Shown: one piece after another, positions 61,735-64,000 of the stretch
Layout: each line of letters begins with the position of its first letter
Position numbering within the stretch: position 1 is the first letter of the stretch
Source: Acidobacteriota bacterium
Lineage (GTDB): Bacteria > Acidobacteriota > UBA6911 > RPQK01 > JAJDTT01
Assembly (NCBI GenBank): GCA_965209055.1
Contig: OZ242374.1
Coordinates: forward strand, 4,128,001-4,192,000
Reading direction: 5' to 3'
DNA length: 64,000 nt
Program-made: the position numbers and the translations under genes
The notes under the pieces: generated by a model
Told to the model about the DNA's origin: nothing
Seen by the model: only the letters and a program-made list of their open reading frames with translations
Databases searched by the model: none

Positions 61735-64000
61735 TTGAAGCTCCATTCAGCACCAAAATCCGCACGGGGGATCCCCTCGGCTCGCCGACATCCGGGTTGG
61801 CCCCCCGCTGTTCTCCTGCTGGGTCTTCTTGCCTCACTCCCCGTTCTGGGGGAAGTCGAGCTGGACAAAGCCGAACTGGAACAGACCGAGGAACTCTCCG
61901 AGTCCCTGGCCAACTCTCTCCTGGAATTCTCGGTGACGGTCCGGGAACGGGACCTGAAGCGGATCGGCGAGTTCTTCGAGTCCCCGTCCCGGGTGACGCC
62001 GTGGCCGGCTCTTTCCGGTGTCCCGGCTTCGGAGTTCAAATGGATCTCGACTGCCGCGCCCCGCGTCACGCGCAAGCGTCCGAAGAAGGTGCCCCGGACC
62101 GGACTGGTGAAGAGCTGGGAGAAGTTCCTGGAGTCCTTCTCATCCGTCGAGGATGCCCGTTTTCAGGTCAAGGGGGCCCGCTTCAGGCAACGGAGGGCGA
62201 AAGTCGAGGGCAAGGGGGATCTCAAGTTCTTCCTGATCGGGCGTGACGGAAAGAGCCATCGATTCTGGGTGAAGGGAACGGGCCGGCTGGTCGCGGTCCA
62301 AACCGGGGAGGAGAAGTGGCAAATCTCCGAATTCCAACTGGACGAGGTCAAGACCATGCGCGCGTCCGCGGACCTCTTCTCCGAGGTCTGTATCCCGGCG
62401 GGAGTTTCCAATTCGCTGCCACGGTACGGCGAACCGGGAAACGATGATTTCGTCTATCACGGCGCCGCTACGGGAGACCTGAACCAGGACGGGCTGCAGG
62501 ACCTGGTGGTCACGGGCATCAACCGGAACTACCTCTACCTGAACCAGGGCGGCCGGTTTCAGGACGTGGCCGACAAAGCGGGGATCTCGATCACCCCGCC
62601 GGGCACGGCGCCGCTGCTCCTCGACTACGACAACGACGGCGACCTGGACGTCTTCATGGCCTCGGTGGGAGAGCAGATGCTGTTCGAGAACCGCCTTGTG
62701 CCGTCCGGGAGACTGCTCTTCTTCGACATCTCGCAAGAGGTCGGCATCGCGGTGAACGCCATCGGTTTCAGCGCCACCGCCGGTGATGTGAACAAGGACG
62801 GCTGGACCGACGTCTACGTTGCCTCCTACAACCGCTACGGCCGGGTCATGCCCGACTCCTGGCACCGCGCCTCCAACGGGACTCCGAACCTGCTCTTCCT
62901 GAATCAAGGGAATGGAAGCTTCCGGGAAGCGGGGGCCGCGTGGGGTGTCCGCGACCAGCGCTGGAGCTATGCCGCCCAGTTCGCCGACATCAACGGAGAC
63001 GGACGGCTGGATCTCTACGTGGCCAACGACTTCGGCGAGAACGGCTACTACGTGAACCTGGGAGACCGCTTCGAGGACCGGGCCACGAGCATGGGGCTGC
63101 TGGACCCCGGCAATGGAATGGGTGTTTCCTTCGGCGACTTCAACAACGACGGGCGGATCGACCTCTACGTCACCAACATGTCCTCGACGGCCGGGAACCG
63201 GATCCTGGACCGGCTGTTCCCGCAGGGCCGGGGAGACCGGAGCGGACTCAAGAAGCTGGCCGCCGGCAACACGTTGTTCGAAGGAGTGGACGGGGGCGGC
63301 TTTCGGGACGTGAGCGGCAAATTCGGACCCTTCGTTGCCGGATGGGCCTGGGGCGGGGTCTTCGTGGACTTCGACAACGACGGATGGGAGGACCTCTACT
63401 CTCCCAACGGGTTCATCAGCGGCAAGTCCATGAAGGACACATGAAGCTTCTTCTGGCGCCACGTCGTGGCGTCCACGGTCGGCGACGAGAAGGCCGGCAA
63501 CCAGGATTACCAGACGAACCACATGGCTCTGCTCTTCGAGCAGGGGCTGTCCTTCAGCGGATTCGAACGGGACGCCCTGTTCCTGAACCGTGAGGGCACC
63601 CGGTTTCAGGACATTTCAGGCGTCTCGGGCATCGACTCCATCTCCGACGGACGCTCGGCCGTTCCCGTCGACCTGGACAACGACGGCGACCTGGACATCT
63701 TTCTCACCACCATCCAGGGCGAAGGTCATCTCCTGTTCCGCAACAACGTGGGCCAGGACAAGGGCTTCATTCGCGTCGAGCTGGAGGGGACGAAGAGCGG
63801 CAAGGACGCATTCGGCGCCCAGGTCCGGGTGAAGACTCCCCTGGGGGTCCAGACCCGGATCCTCTCGGGGGGAAGCGGTTTCATGGCTCAACCCGACCGG
63901 CGGCTCCTGTTCGGACTGGGGGAGACCAAGGAGGCGGAATGGTTGGAGGTGACCTGGCCCTCCGGTGTTCGCCAGCGGGTCGGTCCCATTCCCGCCGGCA
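61735..64000 (+). CDS. CRTAC1/ASPIC-UnbV family FG-GAP protein with in-frame TGA at 63442-63444 (candidate selenoprotein); runs off window
   Basis: FG-GAP repeats before the TGA; the same frame continues open with 'DLDNDGDLD', 'LFRN', 'AFGAQV', 'LLFGLG' and 'VTWPSG'. Confidence 0.82.
63445..63495 (+). promoter_or_regulatory. Candidate bacterial SECIS hairpin
   Basis: TGG-CGCCAC[GTC]GTGGCG-(T)-CCA at 63454-63475; loop starts with G, 18 nt after the UGA; possible outer CTTCT/AGAAG pairing. Confidence 0.55.

Follow-up and report, generated by a model that had tools for sequence, protein, structure and literature searches.

An in-frame UGA codon shared across bacterial phyla probably encodes selenocysteine in CRTAC1-like propeller proteins

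Does a TGA codon in the middle of a gene for a CRTAC1-like protein end that gene, or is it read as selenocysteine (Sec)? The question is raised by a 64,000-nucleotide stretch of the genome of an Acidobacteriota bacterium (GenBank assembly GCA_965209055.1, contig OZ242374.1, positions 4,128,001 to 4,192,000 of the forward strand), which we analysed as a whole and call the window (G000:C1:4128001-4192000, G000 being the bacterium's own genome). An open reading frame (ORF) on its forward strand, 61735..63444, terminates in GFISGKSMKDT followed by TGA at 63442-63444. A preliminary description of the window had noted that the same frame stays open from this codon to the window end at 64000, and had proposed a candidate selenoprotein with a hairpin resembling a selenocysteine insertion sequence (SECIS) just downstream. 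Both the end of the ORF and the open frame were as described, and in the genome the frame reads on to a TAG at window-equivalent positions 64537-64539. The full gene has 934 codons, with the TGA at codon 570 and the 3′ end outside the window. From sequence comparisons we conclude, with high confidence, that this TGA is a genuine Sec codon (residue 570) equipped with a SECIS. The proposal of a candidate selenoprotein is upheld by the presence of the TGA in all 23 orthologues and in other phyla, by the Sec machinery of the genome and by the agreement of the hairpin with published SECIS criteria. Two elements are central to this conclusion:

63442..63444, forward strand: UGA predicted to be read as selenocysteine, residue 570 (TGA conservation, selection on the downstream frame)
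63454..63475, forward strand: predicted SECIS hairpin within the coding sequence (folds, synonymous minimum, covariation, covariance model, bacterial SECIS criteria)

A search of 41 genomes (G000 and 40 relatives) gave 23 orthologues at 53-100% identity, from eight family-level groups. (The orthologue, selA and 201-genome tallies in this text each include one unpublished genome, G016.) Every one of the 23 has exactly one in-frame stop, a TGA, at the same codon (DT-U-SFFWRHVVAS, with U for Sec), down to 53% identity, and in every one the alignment extends through a C-terminal thioredoxin domain to residue 927-934. The 364 downstream codons hold neither a second stop nor a frameshift. The ratio of nonsynonymous to synonymous substitution rates (dN/dS) was 0.064-0.187 downstream of the TGA and 0.063-0.142 upstream of it in seven pairs (an eighth was saturated), which indicates purifying selection of equal strength on either side of the codon. 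An evenly drawn sample of 201 genomes of the phylum, searched at a threshold of E<=1e-90, contained a match in 39 genomes, and 40 of the 48 matches hold one TGA (counted in the new genomes by presence, not position): all 26 matches of at least 44% identity, and 14 of the 22 weaker ones.

Among the matches listed, 62 of 120 database relatives end exactly at ...DT, gene callers having cut them at the TGA codon. One such fragment, of 558 residues, is named 'FG-GAP-like repeat-containing protein' by NCBI. TGA is not reassigned genome-wide, in keeping with the earlier remark that it is an ordinary stop for other genes here: a rough tally, spurious frames included, puts it at the end of 1519 of 2400 open frames of at least 500 codons. 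In eight loci (L044, L046, L056, L057, L059, L063, L070 and L076) the same gene also terminates with TGA, and one mRNA would there carry UGA both as a Sec codon and as a stop. Contigs from three metatranscriptomic libraries of three studies, 91-95% alike, bridge the TGA site (X16 record 10, X18 record 20 and X20 record 25); in a fourth, X15 record 4, one side of the site is covered by just 23 letters. As such libraries can hold DNA, and the contigs come without level or strand, these are at most a hint of transcription in relatives.

The recoded site is also found well beyond the orthologues. TGA occupies the same aligned place in 21 of 80 loci kept from named genomes (19 by best alignment; L072 and L134 by eye). 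The titles of Sec loci name Acidobacteria, Pyrinomonadaceae, Vicinamibacteria, Planctomycetota, Phycisphaerae, Pirellulaceae, Planctomycetaceae, Mariniblastus, Candidatus Multivorans, Akkermansiaceae, Roseibacillus, Verrucomicrobiales and a Gemmatimonadetes metagenome-assembled genome (MAG). By these alignments, the recoded site spans Acidobacteriota, Planctomycetota, Verrucomicrobiota and a Gemmatimonadetes MAG. The window genome itself has a paralogue of about 1353 residues at G000:C1:754964-759056 (L141:997-5055), with a TGA at the corresponding position, 756944 (DTKDL-U-SFLWRQVVS). It combines a membrane anchor, an FG-GAP propeller, UnbV_ASPIC, an AhpC-TSA/Redoxin domain (WCPPC) and tetratricopeptide repeats, and a hairpin follows its TGA, where a covariance-model match (see below) falls exactly.

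In 56 aligned relatives without Sec, position 570 is occupied by S (11), R (11), L (8), E (6), I (6), C (4), A (3), D (3) and V, Q, T and M (1 each), the most distant I/L group being aligned less surely. The Cys-bearing proteins are P0003, P0011, P0013 and P0121, to which the named locus L089 (TGC) can be added. In a midpoint-rooted FastTree phylogeny of 88 propeller sequences, read by topology without support values, the Sec forms make up at least six distinct clades, between which lie clades of S, R, E, L, I, D, A and C forms. The simplest reading is that Sec is old at this site and was probably lost many times independently, often to codons one base from TGA (TCA, CGA/AGA, TTA, TGY).

We then consider the RNA signal that would direct recoding. 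The preliminary description gave the hairpin a 9-bp stem with a bulged U and a GUC loop, the loop lying 18 nt after the UGA, and folding reproduced each of these features. Counted from the U of the UGA, the hairpin spans U13-A34 and begins 10 nt downstream of the codon; it consists of a 6-bp upper stem (63457-62 with 63466-71), the loop GUC (63463-65), the bulged U (63472) and a 3-bp lower stem. The recoding systems that depend on SelB and a SECIS, with fdhF of E. coli as archetype, share with this site an in-frame UGA, a hairpin that follows immediately in the coding region and a small apical loop with a G and then a U. They differ in the family of the host protein, and the hairpin here is short (9 bp, 3-nt loop), with its bulged U on the 3′ side. 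The fdhF SECIS has a larger loop and carries its bulged U on the 5′ side.

The bacterial SECIS (bSECIS) model, as set out in the accessible text of PMC13188914, has a loop of 3-9 nt with a G at its first or second position, an upper stem of 4-16 bp, a distance of 16-37 nt from the UGA and a minimum free energy (MFE) of at most -7.5 kcal/mol. A comparison with such a model had been suggested in advance, and the window hairpin falls within all four of these limits as that text gives them (GUC, 6+3 bp, 18 nt, -13.2 kcal/mol). The spacing of 18 nt, an MFE below -7.5 kcal/mol and the genes selA, selB, selC and selD are further properties in common with SelB-dependent systems. The energy was calculated on a 26-nt piece; among other pieces of that length within 900 nt, only 0.5% equal it.

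Constraint on the hairpin is visible at synonymous sites. Normalised entropy was computed on 12 representative orthologues, using 258 invariant degenerate codons in 252 windows of seven codons, and the four lowest windows of the gene cover codons 571-585, at 0.37-0.41 compared with 0.79 on average over the gene. The codons for Arg575 (CGC), His576 (CAC) and Val578 (GTG) are each identical in 12/12 sequences, and Val577, whose third base is the last base of the loop, varies. We also assembled a cross-phylum set of 34 distinct sequences, each the UGA plus 42 nt, drawn from named MAGs of other phyla as well as from orthologues and paralogues. Every one of the 34 forms a hairpin of 5-11 bp with a GU-containing loop that starts at nt 19-25; 33 have a G in the first two loop positions, 31 reach -7.5 kcal/mol on the 26-nt piece, and 25 rank among the best 5% of local windows (median 0.9%). 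In an ungapped alignment of the set, the pair 18:28 is CG in 14 sequences, GU in seven, GC in three, UA in two, AU in one and something else in seven. Its covariation score of 0.188 is reached by 0/500 shuffles and by no slid control. Base 18 is the synonymous third base of an Arg codon, and its identity follows that of the first base in codon 579 (Ala/Ser/Pro/Thr). The alignment thus points to covariation beyond the protein constraint that is real but narrow, as only pair 18:28 changes on both sides.

A covariance model gave one match per locus in 36/36 loci (250 kb), at the TGA sites, and recovered two sites outside its training set: L060 (47.4 bits) and the paralogue L141 (39.2 bits). It had no match at E<=1 in the non-Sec homologues L089, L092 and L116, and among four non-Sec homologues folded at the same place, three lack a hairpin (-3.7, -1.6 and -6.1 kcal/mol). 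A match in the window at 21133-21168 on the forward strand (15.9 bits, E 0.068) was rejected as chance, its TGA being out of frame at the 3′ end of a 321-residue ORF. At locus L066, titled an uncultured Acidobacteriota MAG, GAG (Glu) stands in place of the TGA and the hairpin is kept (about 4973-5017; -11.2 kcal/mol, 24.5 bits with the model).

The check for Sec genes that had been proposed came out positive: selA (541 bits), selB (313.6 bits, or 349.5 with a C-terminal piece), selD (299.6 bits) and tRNA-Sec (68.9 bits; reported by ARAGORN as SeC with anticodon TCA) all exceed curated cut-offs in the window genome. selA was found in 21/23 genomes with the orthologue and in all five carriers tested from other lineages (Vicinamibacteria, Ca. 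Multivorans, Mariniblastus, Gemmatimonadetes and Akkermansiaceae). Within the order, its co-occurrence with the gene does not discriminate, as selA is present in 39/41 of the relatives, with or without the gene; it is also present in 4/4 tested genomes with non-Sec forms. One of the latter, G046, is the genome of locus L066, and its selA reads in two frames, which may reflect either a recent loss of the Sec trait or assembly errors. The window genome seems to lack Sec-type formate dehydrogenase, the selenoprotein most widespread in bacteria: the best match to the alpha-subunit model (G000:C1:350822-351550) scores 132 bits against a cut-off of 814 and has no in-frame stop. Other selenoproteins must therefore sustain the Sec machinery, and proteins like the 934-residue propeller may help to keep it in such bacteria. 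A crude genome-wide screen for TGA-interrupted frames gave 145 candidates, a list too noisy to define the selenoproteome, in which the site at 63442 ranks 7th by hairpin energy.

Several observations weigh against the conclusion that the site is a Sec codon with a SECIS. With regard to the RNA, the 65-nt fold alone is no better than its shuffles (z = -1.08; 31/200 equal it). In the fixed register only 73% of cells pair, since part of the sequences form a loop of 4 nt, and aligning them anew with the covariance model introduced no gaps that would accommodate this loop. The invariant bases U13, G14, G15, C16, G17, G22, U23, G25 and U26 coincide with codon positions 1 and 2 of W-R-x-V-V, so the third positions and pair 18:28 alone favour an RNA constraint. 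With regard to the machinery, no selA was detected in G009 and G012, carriers of the TGA form, with the family model or with the window genome's own selA protein in genomes about 95% complete; both are of the same family as the window genome and have a tRNA-Sec of 71.6 bits. With regard to the protein, Cys at position 570 is rare (4/56 non-Sec relatives), and fused forms with an intact CxxC motif carry L, V or S there, which implies that residue 570 is dispensable for whatever those relatives do. The preliminary description had proposed an alignment of homologues to see whether the site holds Cys or a conserved TGA: the TGA is conserved, and Cys occurs in a few homologues. The non-Cys homologues do not refute the candidate, because the preliminary description had counted them as a refutation only in combination with an unconserved TGA.

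Could the TGA simply be a broken codon? If the gene were a pseudogene with a nonsense mutation at codon 570, only a 569-residue fragment, or nothing useful, would be made. The many database entries that stop at ...DT (62/120, among the matches listed) and the many residues tolerated at position 570 in relatives would fit. However, the same codon is TGA in all 23 orthologues and in other phyla, the 364 downstream codons remain intact with dN/dS of 0.06-0.19, and a fragment ending after blade 6 of the propeller (see below) would be without blade 7; we thus regard this explanation as extremely improbable. An error in sequencing or assembly, with TGC/TGT or TGG as the true codon, had no finding in its favour and has practically no probability given the same TGA in dozens of independent assemblies, and contigs of four other runs show no difference across 63337-63506, among the 40 of 134 differences listed. 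Alternatively, termination could be programmed and a second protein could restart at GTG 63466, which opens an ORF of 357 codons, making the two halves separate subunits. Yet the seven codons from the TGA to this GTG (SFFWRHV) are among the best conserved, W574 being kept in 100% of Sec forms and R575 in 97%. Furthermore, homologues that lack the TGA are continuous polypeptides across the site, the halves are never frame-shifted relative to each other, and GTG 63466 lies inside the hairpin stem, all of which makes two adjacent genes very improbable.

A further explanation accepts read-through and dispenses with selenium: prompted by the hairpin, a near-cognate tRNA would insert a standard residue (Trp, Cys, Arg or Gly). 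Sequence analysis does not distinguish the inserted residue, relatives accept many residues at this site, and selA was not found in 2/23 genomes with the TGA form. On the other hand, the spacing of the hairpin and its G-U apical loop fit the SelB-dependent model, the Sec machinery is complete here, and selA was detected in every one of the other-lineage carriers tested. Were a standard residue sufficient, a leaky stop should have given way to a sense codon over such divergence, yet TGA has been kept. Locus L066, where GAG stands beside a retained hairpin in a genome with a two-frame selA, fits a joint loss of the codon and Sec. Selenium-free read-through is thus very improbable, and insertion of Sec at residue 570 is the reading that we follow below.

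If residue 570 is Sec, what kind of protein carries it? Besides the UGA and the hairpin, the gene has these features:

61735..61851, forward strand: start of the coding sequence (candidate start TTG 61735; ORF list, translation) and N-terminal signal-peptide-like segment, residues 1-39
61867..62385, forward strand: NTF2-like (SnoaL / ketosteroid-isomerase-like) alpha+beta domain, residues 45-217 (AlphaFold and Foldseek)
62452..63750, forward strand: seven-bladed FG-GAP beta-propeller (Pfam, invariant Asp/Gly columns, Foldseek)
63442..63540, forward strand: two-helix insert between blades 6 and 7, helices 570-582 and 590-602 (DSSP on the AlphaFold model)
63808..64000, forward strand: UnbV/ASPIC domain, residues 692-758, cut by the window end (Pfam PF07593, 8e-17)
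outside the window, forward strand: TlpA-like thioredoxin domain, residues 796-920, with WCGPC at 831-835 (Pfam, Foldseek, PDB sequence matches)

The AlphaFold model of the whole protein, built on a 55-row alignment, has a mean predicted local distance difference test score (pLDDT) of 90.1 and a predicted template modelling score of 0.88, and places in order the alpha+beta domain, the propeller with its insert, a beta-sandwich and the thioredoxin fold. Residues 1-39, basic and then hydrophobic, are disordered in the model (pLDDT <50) and probably form a signal peptide. A Pfam search gave no match for the N-terminal domain. Modelled alone, residues 41-232 reach a pLDDT of 88.2, and their Foldseek matches are LDB self-association domains, scytalone dehydratase, ketosteroid isomerase and LinA (E 7e-6 to 4e-4, template modelling (TM) scores 0.4-0.7). 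The propeller has seven DxDxDG calcium-loop motifs (at D248, D297, D351, D418, D468, D545 and D646) with invariant Asp/Gly columns, and matches FG-GAP_3 (PF13517; 2.8e-40, 137 bits) and FG-GAP (PF01839; 1.1e-22, 80 bits) above cut-offs. The prediction that a further FG-GAP repeat and an ASPIC/UnbV C-terminus would follow the UGA was correct, PF07593 being found above its cut-off at 61 bits. The insert, residues 570-602, is modelled at a pLDDT of 88-93, with residue 570 as the first position of helix 570-582. The linker into the thioredoxin domain is placed confidently (pLDDT 86-96), and that domain matches Redoxin (8.1e-14, 52 bits) and AhpC-TSA (1.2e-13, 51.5 bits), both above cut-offs. The preliminary description had thought Sec unusual in a secreted protein of non-redox fold. 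The term 'non-redox-fold' needs correction, as a TlpA-like CxxC domain is fused at the C-terminus, outside the window.

Among its closest known counterparts is murine CRTAC1 (PDB 9etn), which shares the FG-GAP propeller and the UnbV/ASPIC domain (phmmer E 6.6e-23; Foldseek 9etn_A E 2.6e-26, TM 0.74, 21% identity); non-Sec relatives are named 'CRTAC1 family protein' by NCBI. However, the phmmer alignment leaves out the Sec-bearing insert 570-602, and the bacterial protein adds the NTF2-like N-terminal domain and the TlpA-like C-terminal domain. The latter has the WCxPC motif, the Redoxin/AhpC-TSA domain matches and, by Foldseek, the ResA/TlpA fold (TM 0.6-0.8) in common with TlpA/ResA/CcmG-type oxidoreductases, from which it differs in being fused to a propeller. 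Its NCBIfam scores are 66.2 bits for ResA (cut-off 170) and 61.2 bits for TlpA (cut-off 230), far under these cut-offs, so it is a relative within the superfamily and an orthologue of neither.

The only invariant Cys or Sec positions in the 23 orthologues are U570, C832 and C835, and the whole WCGPC motif is invariant, which suggests a Sec-thioredoxin redox relay. Of the Sec forms, 29 can be read to the end of the downstream frame and three more run off their contigs; 25 of the 29 have a CxxC motif 249-278 residues after Sec, and the CxxC domain is present in only 8/58 non-Sec database forms; both counts are uncorrected for relatedness. The first residue of a helix is the usual place of the reactive Cys or Sec in redox proteins. 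One helix turn beyond residue 570 lie Trp574 and Arg575, found in 100% and 97% of Sec forms, respectively, compared to 61% in others. Ser608 (window 63556-63558) is Ser in 32/32 Sec forms and in 34% of the 56 non-Sec relatives, where it is mostly Ala (relatedness was not controlled for), and may be a partner of the Sec site.

How might such a protein work? In the mechanism that we envisage, the hairpin at 63454-63475, 10 nt 3′ of the UGA and with its loop G-U-N, would recruit SelB and Sec-tRNA(Sec), and the ribosome would insert Sec at residue 570 to yield one exported protein of 934 residues. Sec570, at the helix N-terminus in the insert between blades 6 and 7, would be the reactive centre of an extracytoplasmic redox protein. 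It would react with a substrate or oxidant and then be regenerated by forming a selenenylsulfide with the CxxC domain on the same chain, whose own reduction would draw on the usual periplasmic electron supply. Four complete Sec frames (L055, L073, L075 and L134) are without a thioredoxin domain, which argues against an obligatory relay; in Sec forms of this kind, a separate thioredoxin-like protein could do the recycling. We offer the model of an exported redox protein whose Sec570 selenol is recycled by its fused TlpA-like domain tentatively, with somewhat less than even confidence.

As a functional working model for this arrangement we use fused reductases of the PilB type, an analogy only, the catalytic parts not being homologous. 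Neisseria PilB joins a TlpA-like domain to MsrA and MsrB, such that an exported catalytic domain is recycled by the TlpA-like domain of the same chain. Catalogued selenoproteins with a TlpA- or Redoxin-like domain have that domain in common with the present protein, as far as the accessible part of PMC13188914 describes them. In those families, according to the same part of that paper (PMC13188914), Sec replaces a Cys of UxxC or UGC within the thioredoxin fold, whereas here both thioredoxin Cys are kept and Sec lies 262 residues upstream, on the propeller.

The scarcity of Cys forms is relevant to a long-standing question, namely why Sec is employed rather than Cys. In almost all known selenoprotein families, by the account in the accessible portion of PMC12013277, Cys homologues are numerous. 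A more speculative idea, which we consider rather doubtful, is that Sec here does what Cys cannot: Sec570 would be the ancestral reactive centre, recycled by the attached TlpA-like domain, of extracytoplasmic selenoenzymes that form a new class with a beta-propeller as scaffold, and lineages that drop selenium would lose the chemistry altogether, replacing Sec by Ser, Arg, Leu or Glu and not by Cys. If this were true, the family would be one of few selenoprotein families without a working cysteine counterpart.

The recoding mechanism is ordinary, and the interest lies in the fold that hosts Sec, in the reductase domain attached to it and in how nearly Cys counterparts are absent. Here Sec is predicted to sit on an exported calcium-type beta-propeller, away from the thioredoxin-like folds that hold most bacterial Sec, and the fused TlpA-like domain together with a helix-capping Sec provides a testable redox hypothesis for bacterial CRTAC1-like proteins. 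As suggested by the preliminary description, we checked selenoprotein catalogues for a prior description. The 119 families and subfamilies in Table 1 of PMC13188914 (2026) include no FG-GAP, UnbV_ASPIC or CRTAC1 family in the part of that source that is accessible, and a search of the literature for selenoprotein or selenocysteine paired with FG-GAP, CRTAC1, ASPIC or UnbV found nothing relevant. A literature search on the structure of CRTAC1 likewise yielded nothing of use. The terms FG-GAP, ASPIC, CRTAC and propeller are likewise absent from the accessible texts of PMC13188914, PMC9312934, PMC12013277, PMC2398784 and PMC4807772 (the main text in the case of PMC4807772, Kim et al. 2016). We conclude that this is a widespread, mis-annotated selenoprotein family, uncatalogued in the accessible text of PMC13188914. 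With annotation cut at the UGA, many genomes contain a mis-called gene and the selenoproteome is under-counted.

The gene neighbourhood (a methyltransferase, DUF2442, a B12-binding radical SAM protein, DUF1501 and PSCyt2/PSD1) shows no visible operon and gives no functional lead. In the window, at 58821-60575 on the reverse strand, is a 584-residue ORF with a signal-anchor-like start and no Pfam match at E<=0.001. A gene for a B12-binding radical SAM protein with DUF4070 lies directly 3′ of the selenoprotein gene. Beyond the window, the DUF1501 gene adjoins the PSCyt2/PSD1 (DUF1549/DUF1553) gene (L025:7732-11986, reverse strand; window-equivalent about 66732-70986).

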